Position numbers and translations under genes: made by a program
Notes under the pieces: generated by a model
Told to the model about the DNA's origin: nothing
What the model saw: the letters and a program-made list of their open reading frames with translations, nothing else
Database searches by the model: none
Shown here: piece after piece, positions 4,796 to 48,038 of the stretch
How the letters are laid out: each line of letters begins with the position of its first letter
How positions within the stretch are numbered: the stretch's first letter is position 1
Assembly (NCBI GenBank): GCA_965231095.1
Contig: OZ246416.1
Location: 436,380-500,379, forward strand
DNA length: 64,000 nucleotides
Direction: 5' to 3'
Source of the DNA: an uncultured Gammaproteobacteria bacterium
GTDB taxonomy: Bacteria > Patescibacteriota > Patescibacteriia > XYB2-FULL-38-15

Positions 4796-5377
4796 TCACT
4801 TACTGCCACCGTTCTTACGCTCTTCTCCGCGAAGCCTCCGCAAAAGCCGCCAGGCGATCCAGTGGTAGGTTTTAATAAGGGCAAGACGTGTCTTGCCGAT
4901 TGTGTCAACGCCCTCGCTTGTTACGGGGCGAAGCGGCTTATCCTTACTACAAGATACCTTGAAGGAAATCTGGACATGATGGCTCCGGTCGAACTCTGAC
5001 TCGAAGGCGCAGTAACCGACTACGCGTACCTCTTCAAGATATTGCTCGATCTCTGGCCAGCGCCGCCGAACCGCCTCGTGCAGAGCGCATCTGACAACGT
5101 CGACAGAACCAAGCTCGCCATCGTAGGCATGCCCATTCTTCTCTCGATCCTTAATTACCCTCTCGTCGACGATTTCGACAAGTTGATCGTCAAGAGACAA
5201 AACGAGATGGACCTTCACCCAGCTACTACACTCATCTATCCAGTGGTTATCTACCTTGAACGTGACCACATGAAACTGCGGCGCCCTACCCGCGGCGATT
5301 GCCCCCGCCAACTCCTTCTCAATCGTGTTGTTTGTCTCGGACTCCTCCCCCTCGGGCCCTTCCTCGCACTCTGTCAC
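4796..5377 (-). CDS. Hypothetical protein, GC-rich islet 1 (193 aa, GTG start, acidic N-terminus)
   Basis: A ~53% GC block in a ~40% GC background, with no A/T homopolymer runs, unlike its flanks. GTG start is preceded by GAAAGAAGG about 6 nt upstream, and the ORF has its own terminator. No family recognised by eye. Confidence 0.4.
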   Translation of the reverse strand: MTECEEGPEGEESETNNTIEKELAGAIAAGRAPQFHVVTFKVDNHWIDECSSWVKVHLVLSLDDQLVEIVDERVIKDREKNGHAYDGELGSVDVVRCALHEAVRRRWPEIEQYLEEVRVVGYCAFESEFDRSHHVQISFKVSCSKDKPLRPVTSEGVDTIGKTRLALIKTYHWIAWRLLRRLRGEERKNGGSK

Positions 5378-6440: not shown

Positions 6441-6815
6441 TTACGCTTGCGGCCCCATTGGCGGCGGAGTCATTGCCGTCGCTTTCTTAACTCTAAGAAG
6501 CGGCGCTAAAAGAACCAAGCCGTAGCCCAGCCACAATTCCCAAGCCATAAAAATTTCCGAATTAAACCGCATTGTCACAATCCCATCCAAGATCACGCCA
6601 ACCACAACCCATGAAGCGCCGTAGCCCAACGCCATGCCTAAATTTTTTGGTTTAGCATAACCCGCCAAAACAAAAGAAATCACACCGGAAATAACAGCAA
6701 AACTAATATTCAACCAAAGTGATTCGGGAATCTTAAAACCGATAGCAATGGAAACAATCACAAACATCAGCACCCAAAGCAGAGCGCCAAAACCCAACAT
6801 TTTTTTCCAATTCAT
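6441..6815 (-). CDS. Hypothetical membrane protein (3-4 TM)
   Basis: 124 aa, hydrophobic throughout. A perfect 16-bp palindrome TTTAGTCGCGACTAAA lies just downstream (6422-6437). Confidence 0.4.
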   Translation of the reverse strand: MNWKKMLGFGALLWVLMFVIVSIAIGFKIPESLWLNISFAVISGVISFVLAGYAKPKNLGMALGYGASWVVVGVILDGIVTMRFNSEIFMAWELWLGYGLVLLAPLLRVKKATAMTPPPMGPQA

Positions 6816-21866: not shown

Positions 21867-21995
21867 ATCACAACCACAAAAGTAATAAAAAAACTAAAGG
21901 CCTTGTCAAACTTAAATAACCTTGTTATCATTATATCAAAATCAGGCATATATAGCTATAATTTTACATTTTGCATTTTTAATTTCTAATTTTTT

Positions 21996-22068
21996 GACCC
22001 GGTAGCTCAGCTGGTAGAGCATCTGCCTTTTAAGCAGAGGGTCCTGGGTTCGAGCCCCAGCCGGGTCA
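21996..22068 (+). tRNA. tRNA-Lys (TTT)
   Basis: GACCCGG/CCGGGTC acceptor, D-arm GCTCAGCTGGTAGAGC, anticodon stem TCTGC/GCAGA with loop CTTTTAA, T-arm CTGGG-TTCGAGC-CCCAG. Confidence 0.85.
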
Positions 22069-22334
22069 TTTTTTATTTTTCTATAGTTTTATTAAAACCT
22101 TCAAACGGAGGTTTTTTTGTTTGTCTTGCCCCGTAGTAGAATTTTGGAATTTAAATACTCTTTCGCCGGTAATCGATTGCATTTATCTTTATCGCAAAAT
22201 ATTAAAACCAAGTTCTTTGTCCGCCCCTGGCGGATATCCAAAATTTCACTACGGGGTTGACAAAATCGGCGTATTATTCTAAAATCCAAGGTCGCGATAG
22301 ACAACAACTCTCCGAATCGGAGAAGGAGGCACCC

Positions 22335-22988
22335 ATGGTGGAGGAACGTGATTTCGAGAGACTGCGGGAGCTTACCCCACGGCAATTGTGGATGGAGCTC
22401 GCGGCGGCCTACGAGGCGCTCGCGGCGCAAGAAGTGGAGATCAGGGGTCTCCGCAGCTCGCTGGCGGAACTTTGGAACGAGGGGGAACAATACATGGCCG
22501 AGGGGCGGATCGATCACCTGACGGGCGCGCTGAACCGCAGGGGCGTCGAGATCGCTCTTACTGACGAAATGTCCTTCGCCCGACGCTTCGAGTCCCCTCT
22601 CAGCGTGATCGCGATCGACGTCGACCACTTCAAGGAAACGAACGACACGTACGGACACCCTGCCGGGGACACCGTCCTGCAGGAAATCGTCAGGCGTGCT
22701 CGCAAGGTTCTCCGCCCCTATGACTCAATCGGACGAATAGGAGGAGACGAACTCACCATCATTCTCCGAGGGGCAACTTTGAAAAACGCAACTTTGGTCG
22801 CCGAACGTATCTGCGCGGCCATAGCGCTAAATGTCTTTTCCTACGGCGAAGCAACCTTCCGTGTAACAATCAGCGTCGGTGTGGCCGTGGCCGAGAGAGA
22901 GGCAAAACAAACCCTCGAAGCGGCAGACGAGGCTCTCTATGAGGCCAAACGTAGCGGTCGCAACCGCGTAGTTGCGATCAATCGATAG
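22335..22988 (+). CDS. GGDEF-domain diguanylate-cyclase-like protein (GGDEL variant) with short N-terminal coiled coil; GC-rich islet 2
   Basis: ~60% GC. AAGGAGG lies 7 nt upstream of ATG MVEERDF (this ATG was chosen over the longer track ORF starting at 22257). GGDEF-domain hallmarks: LTGALNRRG, IDVDHFKETNDTYGHPAGD, RIGGDELTIIL. No sensor or TM domain. Confidence 0.75.
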   Translation: MVEERDFERLRELTPRQLWMELAAAYEALAAQEVEIRGLRSSLAELWNEGEQYMAEGRIDHLTGALNRRGVEIALTDEMSFARRFESPLSVIAIDVDHFKETNDTYGHPAGDTVLQEIVRRARKVLRPYDSIGRIGGDELTIILRGATLKNATLVAERICAAIALNVFSYGEATFRVTISVGVAVAEREAKQTLEAADEALYEAKRSGRNRVVAINR

Positions 22989-37669: not shown

Positions 37670-38740
37670 CTATAACTCCACTGCTGAATTATCTCCGATT
37701 ATCATTTTATGGCCGAGCGGCAAACTGTCGGAACATGAAGCAATGACCGCGTTATGGCCAATCAAGCTGTCAACAATTCTTTTGCCGCATTTTATTTCCG
37801 CGTTATCAAAAATAATCGAATGTTCAATTTCCGTGTTGGTGATTTTAGTGTTATTGCCGATTGAAGTGTAGGGGCCGATATAGCTATCCTGGATCACGCA
37901 ATTTTGCCCAATCACAACCGGACCGCGAATTAGAGATTTTCCTCCGACAAAAGTTCCCTTTTCAATTTTTACTCTTCCTTGAATAACGACTCCCGGGGCC
38001 ACATTGGCCTCATTTTTTGTATCAGACAAATCGTGCAAAATTAATTGGTTTCCCTCAAGCAAATCTTCCGGCTTTCCCGTATCTTTCCACCAACCGGTAA
38101 TTTCTTCATATCCAACATTAAAACCTTTTTCAATTAAATAAGTATTGGCGTCGGAGATTTCATATTCGCCGCGCGGCGAGGGCAAAATATTTTCCACCGC
38201 GTCAAAAATGTGCGGGTCATAAATATAAATTCCCGTCTGGGCAAAATTGCTTTGGGGTTTAGCCGGTTTTTCCTCAACGCGAAGAACTTTTCCGTCTTGT
38301 ATAACCGGCACGCCAAATCTTTCCGGGTCGGAGACGCGGGCAAAAGCTAAAAGGACATTAAGCCGGTCGTTTACAAATTTATCCACGAACCTTTTAATGC
38401 TTCCCAAAATAATATTGTCGCCAAGATAAAAAATAAACGGTTCATTGCCCAAAAAATCTTTGGCATTTTTAACGATATGAGCCAAGCCTTTCGGCCCGCC
38501 GGATTGTTCAATGTAGGAAATTTTTAAACCCCAGCGGCTGCCGTCGCCAAGCGCGGGCTGAATTTCTTTTTCTCCGGGATTGATATTGATGCCAACTTCC
38601 TTCACGCCCGTCTCGGCGATTTTTTCCAACGCGTAAAACAACATCGGTTTGTTAGCAATGGGAATCAGGTGTTTATTGGTTGTATAAGTAATCGGCCGCA
38701 ATCTTGTCGCTCTTCCTCCGGCCGTAATCAAAGCTTTCAT
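37670..38740 (-). CDS. Glucose-1-phosphate thymidylyltransferase-like sugar nucleotidyltransferase, long form with C-terminal left-handed beta-helix
   Basis: MKALITAGGRATRLRPITYTTNKHLIPI... parallels recalled RmlA (GGSGTRLYP..., YLGDNI, ERFGV). The C-terminal ~110 aa is hexapeptide-repeat rich. Confidence 0.7.
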   Translation of the reverse strand: MKALITAGGRATRLRPITYTTNKHLIPIANKPMLFYALEKIAETGVKEVGININPGEKEIQPALGDGSRWGLKISYIEQSGGPKGLAHIVKNAKDFLGNEPFIFYLGDNIILGSIKRFVDKFVNDRLNVLLAFARVSDPERFGVPVIQDGKVLRVEEKPAKPQSNFAQTGIYIYDPHIFDAVENILPSPRGEYEISDANTYLIEKGFNVGYEEITGWWKDTGKPEDLLEGNQLILHDLSDTKNEANVAPGVVIQGRVKIEKGTFVGGKSLIRGPVVIGQNCVIQDSYIGPYTSIGNNTKITNTEIEHSIIFDNAEIKCGKRIVDSLIGHNAVIASCSDSLPLGHKMIIGDNSAVEL

Positions 38741-38763: not shown

Positions 38764-39603
38764 TTATACTCTCAAATACTCAGCGAGCGCTTCTTCCCAC
38801 TTCCGCATTGGCGGAAGTTTGGTATTTAATAAAACTGAATATTTTGGTCTTTTGGCGGGACGAGGAAATCTTTCCGCGCCTACCGGTATTAACTTAACAC
38901 TTTTCCCGGATAATTCAAATATTTTCTTGGCCCAACCGTACCAAGTGCAAGACCCCTCATTTGTCACATGATAAATTCCAAACGGTTTTTTCCATTCAAT
39001 AATCTCTCTTGTCCGACGCGCTAAATCGCAAGCATAAGTCGGGGAACTTAATTCTTCGTCAACCAATTCCAAACAATCCCTTTCTTCGGCACACTTTAAC
39101 ATCACATCAACAAAACTTTTTTTCGCGCCCTCGCTTACCGCCGCTTTTCCAAACAGCCGCGACGTTCTTATCAAATAATATTTTTCATTTTTAATTTGTT
39201 GCTCACCTATCAATTTAGAATTGGCGTATACGCTCTGCGGATTTGGCGTCGCGTCTTCCTTGTATCCATCAATCTCTTTCCCATCAAAAACATAATCAGT
39301 GCTGTAATGAACTAAAATCGCGCCGACCGCCTCGGCCGCTTCGGATAAATTTCCCACCGCGTAACCATTAATTTCTTCACCCAATTCTTTGTCGCTTTCT
39401 TCAATTTTGTCCACCGCATTATAAGCCGCGGCGTTAATAATAATTTCCGGTTTTAAATCGGAGATTTTTTTATTAACCTCTTCTTTTTTTGTAATATCAA
39501 TCTCTTCTTTATCCCAAGAGCTAACTTCATATCCATTTTCCCCGAATTCCCCTGCCAAAACCTGCCCCAACATTCCCTTTGATCCAATGATTAAAACCTT
39601 CAT
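38764..39603 (-). CDS. rmlD: dTDP-4-dehydrorhamnose reductase RmlD
   Basis: MKVLIIGSKGMLG, NAAAYNAVDK, VHYSTDYVF, SVYANSKL(I)GE all match recalled E. coli RmlD. Confidence 0.8.
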   Translation of the reverse strand: MKVLIIGSKGMLGQVLAGEFGENGYEVSSWDKEEIDITKKEEVNKKISDLKPEIIINAAAYNAVDKIEESDKELGEEINGYAVGNLSEAAEAVGAILVHYSTDYVFDGKEIDGYKEDATPNPQSVYANSKLIGEQQIKNEKYYLIRTSRLFGKAAVSEGAKKSFVDVMLKCAEERDCLELVDEELSSPTYACDLARRTREIIEWKKPFGIYHVTNEGSCTWYGWAKKIFELSGKSVKLIPVGAERFPRPAKRPKYSVLLNTKLPPMRKWEEALAEYLRV

Positions 39604-39683
39604 AAATAGACTAAATTTAAATATTTCTCACTCTATTTACTTTACTAAAATACCCGTTTTTCGTCAATCCTTAGCCCGCAGAT

Positions 39684-39725
39684 AAAAAAACGCCGTCTGG
39701 GTAGCTGCGTGCTGCCAGACGGCGT
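39684..39725 (-). terminator. Rho-independent terminator of GC-rich islet 3 ORF
   Basis: Perfect 11-bp stem ACGCCGTCTGG/CCAGACGGCGT with a 14-nt loop, followed on the minus strand by TTTTTTT. Confidence 0.55.
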
Positions 39726-39763
39726 AAAGTCAATCCTCCTTACTCGGATCAGGCCGCGGCCGA

Positions 39764-40345
39764 TTACCACCACAAAACCTTGGCCAGGGCGGCAAGCGAC
39801 CGACCGTCGGTGGACTGCTTCCGGAACTCGGCCGGGGTCATGAGCTCGGCTTCCGGGATGGCGTTGACCTCCACGGAATAGACCGCGATCATGCCCACGA
39901 TGCGCTGGGGATTGGATTCGATGTAGCCCACAGGCTCGAGTCCCTTCTCGGCCAGTTCGCCTTTGGAGATGCTCGAGGGTTTCAGCTCCAGCATCTCGCC
40001 GTTCAGGCCCTTGGCCTTGCGGACGCGCACCTTGATCTGCCCGTGCTGGTGGTTCCACTCCACGATGACGTGACCCACGACGCGCGAGCTGCCGTCCTCG
40101 GGCTGCGAGAGGTTGGGCTCTTCGTAGAGCACGAGCTGGCCCCAGCCGCCGCGATCCACGTAGCGCCCGTCGAAGAACTTGCCATCGCCCCGACCACTCC
40201 GACCCGTCGCCGGATCGAAGCACCAGAGCTCGGCCTCCTTGCCATCCTCAACCTTCTTCGTGAGGATCGGATCGAGCTCGAGGCAAACGACGACATCTTC
40301 GCCCAAACGCCTTCGCGCCTCTTCCAAAACGATGATCTGTACCAT
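39764..40345 (-). CDS. Hypothetical protein, GC-rich islet 3 (194 aa)
   Basis: ~60% GC. Start trimmed to ATG (MVQIIVLEEARRRLGEDVVV) preceded by AAGGAAGGAAAG. Strong terminator downstream. Sits inside the rml cluster. No family recognised. Confidence 0.45.
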   Translation of the reverse strand: MVQIIVLEEARRRLGEDVVVCLELDPILTKKVEDGKEAELWCFDPATGRSGRGDGKFFDGRYVDRGGWGQLVLYEEPNLSQPEDGSSRVVGHVIVEWNHQHGQIKVRVRKAKGLNGEMLELKPSSISKGELAEKGLEPVGYIESNPQRIVGMIAVYSVEVNAIPEAELMTPAEFRKQSTDGRSLAALAKVLWW

Positions 40346-40470
40346 CTCTTTCTTTCCTTCCTTGAAGCCCCCTTGGCTTCTTGTTGATATTGATAACTTA
40401 AAACAAAAAACGAATAATGTCAAGAACAGCAAAGCGGCCTTTCGGCCGCTTAATTTTTATTTAATAACCC

Positions 40471-40653
40471 CTATTTTTCTTCTTCCCCGCGCAAAAGTTT
40501 ATGCAATTTTCGTAACGCGTGCGTTCTCTGCTCCGGCGTTCCTCTTTGCGCCAATTTTTCCAGTTCGGCAATTCTCCGTTGTTTTTCTGCGAGCGCTTCG
40601 AAAGACTTTTTTTTATCTGCAAATGCTTCAGCCGAACTCATTCCTTCTCTCAT
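40471..40653 (-). CDS. Small basic coiled-coil hypothetical protein
   Basis: 60 aa, KR-rich helical. Palindrome AAGCGGCC-tttc-GGCCGCTT lies downstream. Confidence 0.25.
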   Translation of the reverse strand: MREGMSSAEAFADKKKSFEALAEKQRRIAELEKLAQRGTPEQRTHALRKLHKLLRGEEEK

Positions 40654-40672: not shown

Positions 40673-41089
40673 TTATGATTTTATATAATTTTTACTCACT
40701 TTTTTAAATTCTTCATAATCTTCAATATAGTCGCTCCGGTCTGGATTATAGTTTGTTGACGAAAGCGCGAAGAGCACGGCATCCGGTGAAAAATCTTTAA
40801 AATGATGCCAAACAAAATTCGGGACGTAAAGGGCGCCCGTTGGACCAACAAGCGGAATTTCTTCTAGGCCATTTCCTTTATCAATTACCGCCGTACAAGT
40901 TCCTTGGATTAAAACAAAAAACTCTTCTTCAATTTTGTGGCAATGGGCGCCGGTCGGAGCTTGGGGTTTCGTAATAAAATAAACTCGCTTCACGGGAAAA
41001 TCAATATAATCTTTAAGTTCCACCGGATTCATCACAAATTTCGGCGTTTCTATTTTTTTAAGTTCAAAAACCTTAAATTCTTTTGCCAT
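40673..41089 (-). CDS. Cupin-fold dTDP-sugar isomerase, FdtA/WxcM-like (dTDP-4-keto-6-deoxyglucose 3,4-ketoisomerase-like)
   Basis: 138 aa. VKRVYFITKPQAPTGAHCHK resembles the R.YF...RG.HAHK motif of FdtA-type isomerases. Too short for a typical RmlC (~185 aa). Confidence 0.5.
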   Translation of the reverse strand: MAKEFKVFELKKIETPKFVMNPVELKDYIDFPVKRVYFITKPQAPTGAHCHKIEEEFFVLIQGTCTAVIDKGNGLEEIPLVGPTGALYVPNFVWHHFKDFSPDAVLFALSSTNYNPDRSDYIEDYEEFKKVSKNYIKS

Positions 41090-41090
41090 A

Positions 41091-42104
41091 TTATTTGATA
41101 TGCGGGTTTAACTCTTCTTTTCTCTTTTGTATCTTTTCTACCCATTCTTTATTTGCCAGATACCATTCTACTGTCTCGCGCATACCCTGCTCAAATTTAT
41201 CTCGGCCATATTCCGGCGCCCACCCTAAAGCCATAATCTTTGACGCGTCAATCGCATAACGCCGGTCATGGCCTGGACGGTCAACGACATGCTCAATCAT
41301 TTCTTCTCCCTTACCCATAATTTTTAACATCATCTTTGTAATTTCCATATTGCTCCGTTCGTTATCAACGCCGATATTATAAACCTCTCCCACCGCGCCT
41401 TTGTGGAGTAATAGATCTAACGCCGCGGTGTGATCAGTTACATAAATCCAGTCGCGGACATAAAGCCCGTCGCCGTAAACCGGAACTTTTTGATCGCTAA
41501 GCAAACGAAAAATAAAAAAGGGAATTATTTTTTCCGGAAACTGGTATGGGCCATAATTGTTGGAGCAATGCGTGACGACCACCGGAACTTTGTGCGTCAC
41601 AAAATAAGCGTTGCACATCAGATCTCCGCCGGCTTTAGCCGCGGCATAAGGCATGTTAGGCCAGATCGGAGTTGACTCAATAAATTTTTTATCCTCATCA
41701 AGTCCAAGCGCGCCATAAACCTCGTCAGTTGAAACATTTACAAATTTTTCTAAATTATTTACGCGCACCGCGTCCAAAATCATCTGCACGCCCAAGGTAT
41801 TGGTCATAACAAAATCCTTGCAGCCGCCGTGGATTGAACGGTCAACATGAGTTTCCGCGGCAAAGTTTATCACGTGCGTGATGCCATGATCTTTTATCAC
41901 CTGATTTAATTTTTCCAAATCACAAATATCACCCTGAACAAAAGTGTAGTTCAAATTATTTTCCACATCGCGTAAATTATCTAAATTCCCCGCGTAAGTC
42001 AGCTTATCGTAATTTACGATTTTGTAGTCCGGATATTTTTTTAGCATTTGCCGGACAAAATTTGATCCGATAAATCCGGCCCCTCCACAAACCAATAAAT
42101 TCAT
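41091..42104 (-). CDS. rmlB: dTDP-glucose 4,6-dehydratase RmlB
   Basis: 337 aa. MNLLVCGGAGFIGSNF Rossmann motif, YAAAKAG (YxxxK), and NNYGPYQFPEK. Confidence 0.85.
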   Translation of the reverse strand: MNLLVCGGAGFIGSNFVRQMLKKYPDYKIVNYDKLTYAGNLDNLRDVENNLNYTFVQGDICDLEKLNQVIKDHGITHVINFAAETHVDRSIHGGCKDFVMTNTLGVQMILDAVRVNNLEKFVNVSTDEVYGALGLDEDKKFIESTPIWPNMPYAAAKAGGDLMCNAYFVTHKVPVVVTHCSNNYGPYQFPEKIIPFFIFRLLSDQKVPVYGDGLYVRDWIYVTDHTAALDLLLHKGAVGEVYNIGVDNERSNMEITKMMLKIMGKGEEMIEHVVDRPGHDRRYAIDASKIMALGWAPEYGRDKFEQGMRETVEWYLANKEWVEKIQKRKEELNPHIK

Positions 42105-42114
42105 ATTTTTACTC

Positions 42115-42645
42115 TTAATTTTTAAAATATTTTCTTACCATTGCCCAAGCGGCCATGGTTTCTCCGTCCCAAATTTCATTTGTTTCAATCATCTTATCAA
42201 TTTCTTCCGGCGTTTTATATAAAACTTCAATTTCTTCCGACTCTTCAGGGTGGCTTTCCCCCTTTTTCAAATTTTTTGCCAAAAAAACTCTCACTAATTC
42301 TTTCGAAAAACCTCGCGACGGAGCAAACTCACCAATAAATTTTAAATCTCCCTGATAACCGGTTTCTTCTTCAAGTTCAGTTTGGGCTGCCCTCTCGGGA
42401 GTTTGTCCATCTTTAATACAACCCGAACAAAGTTCTATACAATCTCTATCAAAAAGATAACGATACTGCTTTACTAAAACAATCCGCCCGTCGTCCAAAA
42501 TTGGCACGACCATACTCCCACCAGGATTATCAAAATAATAATAATCCCCTTCCTTACCATTTGGCAACTTAAATTTATCGTGCTTATAAGTCCACCACGG
42601 ATTTTTATGTAAAACTTCTTCGCTTAATTTTTTGTATCTTTTCAT
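42115..42645 (-). CDS. NUDIX hydrolase
   Basis: 176 aa. Nudix box GCIKDGQTPERAAQTELEEETGY. Confidence 0.7.
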   Translation of the reverse strand: MKRYKKLSEEVLHKNPWWTYKHDKFKLPNGKEGDYYYFDNPGGSMVVPILDDGRIVLVKQYRYLFDRDCIELCSGCIKDGQTPERAAQTELEEETGYQGDLKFIGEFAPSRGFSKELVRVFLAKNLKKGESHPEESEEIEVLYKTPEEIDKMIETNEIWDGETMAAWAMVRKYFKN

Positions 42646-47638: not shown

Positions 47639-47738
47639 AAAAAATAATAAAACGCCAGAAAATAATCACCGGCGTTTTTTTATTGACAAAAAATAAAATA
47701 AATGATTAAATAATGAGTCACCAACAAAGGAGGGCTTG

Positions 47739-48038
47739 ATGACCAACAAAGAGAAGGCCAAGATGGAAGACATTCTGATGCGGCACTTGGAGGAAGACGA
47801 CCGTCTTTGCCCGATCGCCGAAGCAATGCCCGGCGACTACGTCACCGTAGTGCTTCCCTACAAGCTTTTGTGGGCTTTCCGCGTGAACATCGCTCGCCAC
47901 GCGATCGTGCGCAAGCGCGACTTGTCTCGGCCCGACGACGGAGTGGAGATCGAACTTCTGAACGACCGGGCCGAAACCGATCAGCTTCCCCTGGACTATC
48001 CGTGTTTCGTGACGCCGCCTGCGACCGACGAGGAATAA
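47739..48038 (+). CDS. Small hypothetical protein, GC-rich islet 4 (~99 aa)
   Basis: ~58% GC. AAGGAGG lies 5 nt upstream of ATG (MTNKEKAKMEDIL...). Followed by a terminator. No family recognised. Confidence 0.45.
   Translation: MTNKEKAKMEDILMRHLEEDDRLCPIAEAMPGDYVTVVLPYKLLWAFRVNIARHAIVRKRDLSRPDDGVEIELLNDRAETDQLPLDYPCFVTPPATDEE

Follow-up and report, generated by a model that had tools for sequence, protein, structure and literature searches.

Replacement-type flexible islands are known from surface-polysaccharide loci, such as those of the O-antigen or of the capsule, in which conserved genes lie on either side. Among the enzymes of deoxysugar pathways, EvaA is the deoxythymidine diphosphate (dTDP)-sugar 2,3-dehydratase of chloroeremomycin biosynthesis. 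Its catalytic residues are Glu139, in an EPGN motif, and Glu190, in an E-x-G-x-x-F-F motif, and the protein carries a second, inactive sugar-binding domain left from a duplication (PMC8987622). In this work, a window of 64,000 nucleotides (nt) of contig OZ246416.1 (positions 436,380 to 500,379), assigned by GTDB to Patescibacteriota, was analyzed for an open reading frame (ORF) which lies in a dTDP-sugar (rml) operon, between the FdtA/RmlB and the RmlD/RmlA genes. The product of this ORF is predicted, from a structural model and from profile comparisons, to be a single-domain Nudix-fold protein remotely related to the nucleoside diphosphate (NDP)-hexose 2,3-dehydratases (PF03559). We propose, with a probability of roughly 0.6, that the ORF is a separately transcribed accessory gene of a patescibacterial dTDP-deoxysugar operon, that it encodes a divergent miniature relative of EvaA and of the PF03559 proteins, and that it occupies a replaceable slot where it serves the binding or the tailoring of a dTDP-sugar. 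The gene together with its expression signals is called the cassette below, and the loci of relatives are designated by L followed by a number.

The gene and its family

The guanine plus cytosine (GC) content of the ORF is 0.63 and reaches 0.84 at third codon positions (GC3). An earlier note on this DNA, made from the letters alone, had described a GC-rich ORF at this place whose product had no recognized motif, and both remarks were borne out. None of the libraries Pfam, NCBIfam, PADLOC and PHROGs matches the 193-residue protein above threshold, the sole library entry being a PHROG of unknown function (E 0.054), and searches of the PDB sequences with two family profiles gave nothing meaningful. 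No relative was found among the IMG/VR viral contigs with one narrow peptide pattern, which is a weak negative, and nothing relevant was found in the literature on GC-rich islets in Patescibacteria or on single-domain 2,3-dehydratases.

The ORF is a genuine gene. The GC content of its three codon positions follows the pattern 0.66/0.39/0.84, and the ratio of nonsynonymous to synonymous divergence (dN/dS) is 0.31 among five syntenic orthologues, against 0.035-0.10 for RmlA, RmlB, RmlD and FdtA. By this measure the cassette protein evolves about three to nine times faster than its neighbours, and its identity between genomes is 62-86% versus 83-95% for the neighbouring proteins. A chance reading frame in a GC-rich non-coding or RNA-coding insert could have been suspected, as long spurious ORFs arise in several frames of GC-rich DNA and the transcript of the window, which includes its two hairpins, folds better than shuffled sequences (z = -4.0). 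This explanation is already refuted by the codon-position pattern, the dN/dS value, the protein-like conservation and a confident AlphaFold model. Moreover, the antisense frames are interrupted by stops in several loci, the sense +2 frame is slightly short of stops in a way that varies between loci, Rfam gives no credible match to the cassette and the L013 transcript folds like its shuffles (z = -0.9).

A search of 5.8 billion proteins yielded 46 homologous clusters, none of them with a Pfam domain, and a profile search run exhaustively over 1.84 billion representatives retrieved only 80 at E <= 1e-3 (representatives at 50% identity). Every named cluster or relative is a Patescibacteria metagenome-assembled genome (MAG) and no outside donor is visible; the family appears to be restricted to Patescibacteria. 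Two contigs labelled 'uncultured Gammaproteobacteria', L006 (CAYYFM010000039.1) and L007 (CAYMBX010000009.1), display the patescibacterial synteny PEGA-RmlA-islet-RmlB-NUDIX, the islet being the GC-rich cassette gene, and are probably mis-binned or mislabelled Patescibacteria.

Two members of the family depart from the others. The orthologue of the Falkowbacteria MAG JACRNW01 carries a frameshift close to the C-terminus (L014 / L003, around 6480-6590), so that the conserved end ...STDGRSLAALAKAGL is read in another frame; this is a pseudogene or an assembly error. One distant member (alignment A2) shows sigma-70 region 4 / helix-turn-helix (HTH) hits (E 3e-12) beside the family domain, which is either an artefact of gene calling or a fusion that would point to regulation.

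Fold and remote homology

With the family alignment, AlphaFold2 produced a model with a predicted local distance difference test (pLDDT) of 92.2 and a predicted template modelling score (pTM) of 0.80. When this model was compared with the PDB by Foldseek, the best match was EvaA (4j7h_A; E 3.8e-4, probability 1.00, query-normalised template modelling (TM) score 0.46). The remaining top PDB matches were all of the Nudix fold and comprised adenosine diphosphate (ADP)-ribose pyrophosphatases, a guanosine diphosphate (GDP)-mannose hydrolase, the Nudix domain of NrtR and the C-terminal domain of MutY/MUTYH. In the viral structure library BFVD, the matches were mostly annotated as Nudix. The islet protein is made of one domain, and EvaA has two matched stretches (36-246 and 261-457).

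In order to compare the families at the profile level, 23 patescibacterial single-domain PF03559 proteins were collected (alignment A5). The hhalign comparison of the islet family (alignments A1 and A2) with A5 gave a probability of 91% and an E-value of about 1e-6 over 42-102 columns, a partial coverage of the domain. An invariant Trp, RxDGxFF, W.Q(P) and PxxxFSxGxL are common to both families, the counterpart of the last motif in the islet family being LKPSSISKGEL, and by eye the C-terminal D-G-R-S-L-x-A-L of the family resembles the G-H-x-R-S-V-x-S-L of PF03559. A variant of the protein, called type B, is a member of the family (hhalign E 1e-20). Compared alone with alignment A5, it reached a probability of 85% (E 6.6e-6), and its only Pfam hit is a sub-threshold match to PF03559 (E 0.02, 14.7 bits versus a cut-off of 25). 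From the model and from these comparisons, we conclude that, within the Nudix superfamily, the family is a distant and miniaturised side line of the 2,3-dehydratase branch.

Several observations weigh against this assignment and against the function proposed from it. The window protein has no Pfam hit even at E <= 1, none of 49 diverse members (0/49) matches PF03559 at E <= 0.1, and no sequence-level match to PF03559, to Nudix or to any PDB chain was found. The structural likeness is modest, the TM score of 0.46 going with a root mean square deviation above 5 A, and the hhalign match spans only part of the domain. Glu139 and Glu190 of EvaA map to the invariant or near-invariant E94 and E169 of the patescibacterial PF03559 proteins, where the EPGN and E-DGGRFF motifs are kept. 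In the islet family, the EPGN loop has no counterpart in the hhalign profile alignment, in which a shift is possible at such a distance, and the Glu190 motif is not recognisable in a mapping made by eye and not computed. As the EPGN loop is absent and the Glu190 motif is not evident, it is doubtful that the protein carries out canonical 2,3-dehydratase chemistry. It also lacks the canonical Nudix box GX5EX7REUXEEXGU, and there is no PF00293 hit. At the level of the operon, the cassette has its own promoter and terminator, and the gene lies on the opposite strand in Uhrbacteria, so that a co-expression with the pathway is uncertain; the empty sites described below show that the gene is dispensable.

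Ten residues are invariant in the family alignment: W41, R52, D54, E76, E120, S124, S125, K128, Q147 and R182. The loop-helix sequence of the family reads G113-LN-G116-EML-E120-LKPSSIS-K128-G-E130-LAE, with a helix predicted at residues 128-133, and we take its E120-x7-K128-x-E130 portion to be the Nudix box position. The clustering of E120, S124, S125 and K128 at this Nudix-equivalent loop-helix suggests that, in the model, the functional site would be the classical Nudix site. This placement, together with structural neighbours that are mostly ADP-ribose or GDP-mannose pyrophosphatases, is what a divergent Nudix-type pyrophosphohydrolase clearing dTDP-sugar intermediates (housecleaning) would display. 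Such an enzyme is nevertheless quite improbable here, in view of the missing Nudix box and Pfam NUDIX hit, of an hhalign comparison of the family with the operon's own canonical NUDIX protein which finds nothing, and of the fact that the cluster already contains this canonical NUDIX gene.

The loss of the EPGN loop could also be understood if the protein were a non-catalytic NDP-sugar sensor or partner subunit, a stand-alone counterpart of the inactive 'pocket B' domain of EvaA, which would regulate or pair with, for example, the single-domain PF03559 protein or the PaaX-like protein encoded next to it in Uhrbacteria. The inactive second domain of EvaA counts for this explanation, as do the single-domain PF03559 genes (241-245 codons) adjacent to the family gene in L015, L018, L005 and L008, the PaaX_M regulator-like gene adjacent in L016 and L018, the regulatory Nudix domain of NrtR among the fold matches, the member with sigma-70/HTH hits and a predicted transcription independent of the pathway genes. 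We nevertheless consider a sensor or partner unlikely: the clade of the window has FdtA in place of a PF03559 partner, the ten invariant residues include the acidic D54, E76 and E120, which are more active-site-like, and the lone HTH fusion may be a gene-calling artefact.

Proposed function

In the function that we favour, a dTDP-sugar-binding or -tailoring accessory protein, the gene would sit behind a resident promoter in a slot that is bordered by the terminator of the FdtA/small-ORF transcript on one side and by the RmlD promoter on the other. The protein would bind a dTDP-sugar at the site equivalent to the Nudix loop-helix, the likeliest ligand being the RmlB product dTDP-4-keto-6-deoxyglucose or a derivative, and would then tailor this sugar or control its flux. 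Strains with different cassettes would in this way make different surface glycans. That a dTDP-sugar is bound is suggested by the fold of the protein, by its distant homology and by the position of the gene, which is always next to RmlA, RmlB and RmlD. The protein may tailor the sugar without the glutamates of EvaA, may sense or sequester it like the inactive second pocket of EvaA, or may hydrolyse it; among these alternatives, tailoring or binding is the most likely. The dispensability of the gene, the fast evolution of its protein and its alternation with other cassettes would fit an accessory, glycan-diversifying role.

With these results, an unannotated and apparently Patescibacteria-only family of about 80 representatives at 50% identity in 1.84 billion proteins can be placed by its structure and its evolution. 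Its members are candidates for a new chemistry, or a new sensing, of dTDP-sugars in bacteria whose surface glycans probably mediate the attachment to their hosts, and a small replaceable slot in a dTDP-sugar operon is a place to study glycan variation.

Organization and polymorphism of the slot

Four relatives of the clade have the gene order of the window (RmlB, FdtA, small ORF, cassette gene, RmlD, RmlA), with RmlA 87-95% and the islet protein 62-72% identical to those of the window. In the five genomes, window included, the start codon is found exactly 125 nt past the stop of the small ORF. The elements conserved around the cassette are the upstream hairpin, a TTGACA box and a TAA-type -10 box 17 nt apart, the hairpin of the 5' untranslated region (5'-UTR), the Shine-Dalgarno (SD) sequence and a 3' hairpin followed by a T-run.

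Eighty metagenomic loci were fetched via FdtA. In about 25 more distant relatives, FdtA is directly followed by RmlD, with ~7-80 bp between the matches, and this adjacency is the ancestral arrangement of an operon that was split afterwards. These results are in agreement with the earlier note, according to which the ORF separates the RmlA-like and RmlD genes from the cupin isomerase and RmlB and interrupts a normally contiguous operon.

The content of the slot differs between close relatives (FdtA 80-87%, RmlD 82-88% identical). L021 and L024 carry the studied gene (type A). L022 and L026 carry the type-B gene, which is 34-35% identical and has a GC content of 0.66-0.67, and the leader is the same in L022. 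In L020, the slot contains another GC-rich gene, homologous to that of a 228-residue protein of L016, plus an ORF of 184 codons. The slot is empty in L023 and L025, where the hairpin of the small ORF is directly followed by the RmlD promoter. The hairpin and a TTGAC(A/G) box are common to all these arrangements, and the cassette is an insertion into a polymorphic slot.

The protein of L016 belongs to a GC-rich, 228-237-residue type which replaces or adjoins the studied family (L020 950-1663, L016 5244-5930, L007 7261-7926). Inspected by eye, its core is of the ADP-ribose-pyrophosphatase type and includes a degenerate Nudix box (...ELPRGWIPPEAASDHRATVRAVLTGEIGEEW); Pfam gave no hit, and hhalign of the L016 protein against the islet and PF03559 profiles was negative. 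If this protein is of Nudix fold, all the GC-rich cassettes of the slot would belong to one superfamily.

The type-A and type-B genes are followed by a second cassette gene which codes for a basic protein of 70-76 residues (MARLRKK.../MARRHKP...) with a GC3 of 0.78-0.89 and no family hit. This gene is intact in five loci (Table 1) and is deleted in the window and in L011, where its last ~15 nt remain (39749-39762 in the window). As only this remnant is left, the cassette of the window is a reduced version.

As to its expression, the purine-rich SD-like sequence and the perfect 11-bp-stem terminator announced by the earlier note were recovered (Table 1). The stem of the terminator is the inverted repeat I7, with 100% complementarity, and the terminator was missed by the scanner, which accepts loops of <=8 nt. 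At its position, L011, L012 and L014 have another hairpin with a T-run. Across 8 aligned loci, the putative promoter keeps TTGAC and, in its -10-like box, the TAA without change; this box is below the reach of a consensus promoter scanner, and the site is probably the promoter of the cassette. In the empty sites, an equivalent promoter would drive RmlD directly, and in L023 the same RmlD promoter sequence comes directly after the upstream hairpin. The stem of the 5'-UTR hairpin is unchanged in the window, in L011-L014 and in the type-B locus L022, and forms in minimum free energy folds; it shows no covariation and is a putative element only. The upstream hairpin presents compensatory changes (GCGGCC/GGCCGC versus ACGGCC/GGCCGT), is kept in filled and empty sites, and is predicted to terminate the FdtA/small-ORF transcript. 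With its own promoter-like site, SD and terminator, the cassette appears to be self-contained.

No transposase, integrase or recombinase is encoded near the cassette, the neighbours being rml, HIT, NUDIX, PEGA and similar genes. No target-site duplication, for which the earlier note had proposed a check, and no terminal inverted repeat was found at the borders, where short repeats occur at chance level only. About 4 exact 9-mer repeats are expected by chance in 1.4 kb by our estimate, and among the relatives aligned the pair of the 9-mer AGGATTGAC occurs in this window only. An integron-like attC site was rejected, as by eye the 3' hairpins lack the RYYYAAC/GTTRRRY cores and an integrase is absent nearby. 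Without target-site duplication, terminal repeat or recombinase, homologous recombination in the conserved flanks is the simplest mechanism, and the cassettes would be exchanged in this way. RmlD of L012 and L013 share 82% of four-fold degenerate sites, against about 50% for every other pair, and their RmlA share only 40%, which points to a recombination tract ending between RmlD and RmlA.

The family was also found beyond this clade. In Uhrbacteria-type loci, where RmlA is about 56% identical, a member is again embedded in the rml cluster, with RmlA on one side and the PF03559/RmlD genes on the other, and mostly has the opposite orientation to the rml genes; the adjoining single-domain PF03559 and PaaX_M regulator-like genes are those mentioned above. 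Two far-removed members, L010 (32% identity) and L099 (about 30%), have RmlB and an RmlD-like gene as neighbours. At every locus with enough flanking DNA, the family is found beside rml genes, and the pairwise identities of the islet and of RmlA/RmlB correlate (r = 0.81).

Base composition and age of the cassette

The window has 43% GC and few short stretches exceed 55%. The six neighbour genes of the ORF have GC contents of 0.37-0.43 and GC3 values of 0.31-0.45, and in the five syntenic orthologues the GC3 of the gene is 0.81-0.85 versus 0.30-0.47 in the flanking genes. The synonymous divergence (dS) is about 0.7 among the cassette orthologues and about 1.0-1.4 for the flanking genes. With ~0.5 substitutions per synonymous site per lineage, a neutral GC3 excess is expected, by our estimate, to decay by about 40%. 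Across clades, the GC3 of the family is 0.74-0.98 versus 0.26-0.73 for adjacent host genes. The four-fold degenerate sites are 42% identical between clades, the chance value being ~37% (hand-calculated from third-position base counts), and many of the differences are swaps between G and C. High GC3 is a stationary property of the cassettes and not a mark of recent arrival.

Outside the coding sequence and the 3' remnant the GC excess disappears, as promoter and leader are AT-rich. GC richness is shared by the single-domain PF03559 genes that adjoin the family gene, by the gene of the small basic protein and by the other slot genes, but not by FdtA, the PaaX-like gene or the core rml genes. Several causes were examined and rejected: the amino-acid composition, as the excess sits at third codon positions; an overlapping or antisense gene, by the antisense stops in several loci and the inconsistent shortage of stops in the +2 frame; a structured RNA, by the Rfam result and the folding scores (z of -4.0 in the window and -0.9 in L013); and a native-type translational selection, as apart from the islets no gene class of the window has a GC3 above 0.6. 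The excess may come from selection acting at synonymous positions, from GC-biased gene conversion in a hotspot of exchange or from a continual re-seeding by GC-rich lineages; hosts of 58-60% GC exist (L017, L099 and L100).

A more general explanation would be a pool of small GC-rich cassettes shared by the Patescibacteria and placed in promoter-equipped slots of AT-rich syntenic operons, with a gene-specific force holding GC3 at ~0.75-0.98 for any host GC3 between 0.26 and 0.73 and in spite of a synonymous turnover that is saturated. Several of these cassettes encode Nudix-related proteins (types A and B, single-domain PF03559) and others have no family hit. The candidate forces would be synonymous selection (e.g. 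for mRNA stability or for the escape from an AU-specific nuclease), GC-biased gene conversion and re-seeding. We put this forward as a tentative idea, rather doubtful at present; if true, the mechanism which keeps the composition, or a swapping of cassettes without a recognisable recombinase, would be new. In any case, a high GC3 which persists past a divergence that should have erased a neutral signal is a testable case of what holds the composition of a single gene off the genomic equilibrium.

The earlier note had interpreted the ORF as a recent foreign insertion. On this view, it would be a recently acquired mobile cassette, unrelated to sugar metabolism, which landed by chance among the rml genes. 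A GC3 of 0.84 where that of the genome is about 0.4, the self-contained promoter, SD and terminator, the empty sites L023 and L025 with FdtA and RmlD contiguous in deeper relatives, and the fast protein evolution (62-86% versus 83-95% identity for the neighbours) are compatible with such an event, and an insertion of a self-contained unit into a polymorphic slot is retained. Its recency and its foreign origin were not upheld. The five genomes share the exact site and the 125-nt leader at a dS of about 0.7, with a GC3 of 0.81-0.85 in all five and no sign of decay; the comparison of rml synteny in relatives thus spoke for insertion and against recency. The named homologues are all Patescibacteria, with none in IMG/VR by the narrow pattern, and the family is tied to rml genes, also in clusters where RmlA is only about 56% identical and with islet identities that follow those of RmlA/RmlB (r = 0.81). 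In addition, target-site duplication, terminal repeat, transposase and integrase are all missing, and the protein is, remotely, homologous to a sugar-pathway superfamily. An insertion conserved across the lineage and a protein from a known sugar-pathway family were the two findings named by the earlier note itself as opposed to its interpretation, and both were largely obtained. A recent foreign cassette is consequently improbable.

Other GC-rich stretches were noticed in the window and in relatives. Just downstream of a gene of 710 codons, a 100-codon ORF without Pfam hit (47736-48038, + strand) has a GC content of 0.59; at this position, L003/L004 have a GC-rich (0.57) homologue which is 34-38% identical, the product of the 710-codon gene being 86-87% identical. 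Like the studied cassette, this islet combines a high GC content and a fast evolution with a fixed slot. At 22257-22988 (+ strand), an islet of up to 65% GC (GC3 0.66-0.68) encodes a GGDEF-domain protein of the diguanylate cyclase type (Pfam E 3.5e-40). The islet is located ~190 nt downstream of tRNA-Lys(UUU) (21995-22069) and is followed by a hairpin. At 4796-5377 (- strand), a 193-codon ORF with a GC3 of 0.63 has no Pfam hit and, by eye, is unlike the studied protein. GC-rich (0.53-0.66) PF03559-like stretches are present in L055 (5973-6488), L064 (2928-3422) and L075 (3298-3891), in FdtA-containing rml clusters of genomes of 38-41% GC, and extend to further lineages the association of GC-rich Nudix-fold genes with rml clusters.

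Neighbouring genes and coordinates

The coordinates of the features are collected in Table 1. A HIT gene is also found beyond RmlB. The small ORF between FdtA and the cassette, which the earlier note had overlooked together with the upstream-border hairpin, is found in the filled and empty sites of the clade and is 18-68% identical between genomes, with a weak DUF349 match (E 0.017). The deeper relatives, where FdtA abuts RmlD, may lack it.

Table 1. Features of the rml locus in the window (nucleotide triphosphate, NTP; amino acids, aa) and position of the second cassette gene in relatives.
Feature	Position	Strand	Basis or remark
RmlA-like NTP transferase, long form	37670-38740		family search
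RmlD	38764-39603		family search
RmlD promoter-like site TTGACG-N17-TAAAGT	39639-39667	-	promoter scan, 9/12 matches; downstream border, outside the cassette
Putative cassette intrinsic terminator	39683-39725	-	arms 39715-39725 / 39690-39700, perfect 11-bp stem, 14-nt loop, then TTTTTTT
3' UTR	39729-39763	-	carries the remnant CGGCCGCGGCCTGA of the 3' end of the second cassette gene
Coding sequence	39764-40345	-	193 aa + TAA, no internal stops (translation)
SD-like AAGGAAGGAAAG	40352-40363	-	sequence; AAGGA kept in relatives
5'-UTR hairpin GAAGCC-N5-GGCTTC	40364-40380	-	directly upstream of the SD
Cassette promoter-like site	40395-40423	-	-35 TTGACA (40423-40418), 17-nt spacer, -10-like TAAGTT (40400-40395)
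Upstream-border hairpin AAGCGGCC-GAAA-GGCCGCTT	40432-40451	.	terminator scan, both strands; T-rich on either side
Small ORF, 60 aa, K/E-rich	40471-40653	-	between FdtA and the cassette
FdtA-type cupin ketoisomerase	40673-41089		family search
RmlB	41091-42104		family search
Canonical NUDIX gene	42115-42645		beyond RmlB
Second cassette gene, intact	L012 6636-6851; L013 6594-6812; L014 6611-6829; L022 5337-5567; L026 2762-2974		

Comparison with known systems

The EvaA-type 2,3-dehydratases (PF03559 Hexose_dehydrat; PDB 4J7G/4J7H) share with the islet protein a Nudix-like fold, EvaA being its best structural match, the N-terminal motifs W, RxDGxFF and W.QP together with PxxxFSxGxL, and a clustering with RmlA and RmlB, the suppliers of the substrate dTDP-4-keto-6-deoxyglucose. 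They differ from it by a size of about 470 aa in two domains versus 193 aa in one. Unlike them, the islet family has no Pfam hit, lacks the EPGN loop (Glu139) and has no Glu190 motif recognisable by eye; it also appears limited to Patescibacteria and is predicted to be separately transcribed.

The Uhrbacteria-type single-domain PF03559 proteins (241-249 aa, alignment A5) are closer in organization: their genes use the same operon slot, are often adjacent to the family gene and are GC-rich as well (GC3 0.61-0.79 versus 0.30-0.54 for the host), and they are made of one domain. In contrast to the islet proteins, they are clear members of PF03559 with intact EPGN and E-DGGRFF motifs and are about 50 aa longer, and the likeness between the two families is detectable only profile to profile. 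The Nudix hydrolases (ADP-ribose pyrophosphatase, GDP-mannose hydrolase YffH, NrtR domain) have in common with the islet family the alpha/beta/alpha fold and a conserved loop-helix at the place of the Nudix box, whereas the Nudix box itself, a PF00293 hit and a similarity to the NUDIX protein of the cluster are absent from the islet family.

With the flexible islands, the slot shares alternative, barely related or unrelated cassettes at one locus, conserved flanks, an atypical composition and the lack of mobility genes. Unlike them, its unit consists of one to three genes (about 0.8 kb) behind a resident promoter and is GC-rich and not AT-rich, with an offset which persists across a phylum-level group. 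Mobile elements would likewise leave an empty site in close relatives, but the repeats, duplications and recombinase which go with them are absent here. By these comparisons, the protein family represents a new form within a known superfamily, and what is really unusual about the locus is a GC3 that is particular to the gene and persists.

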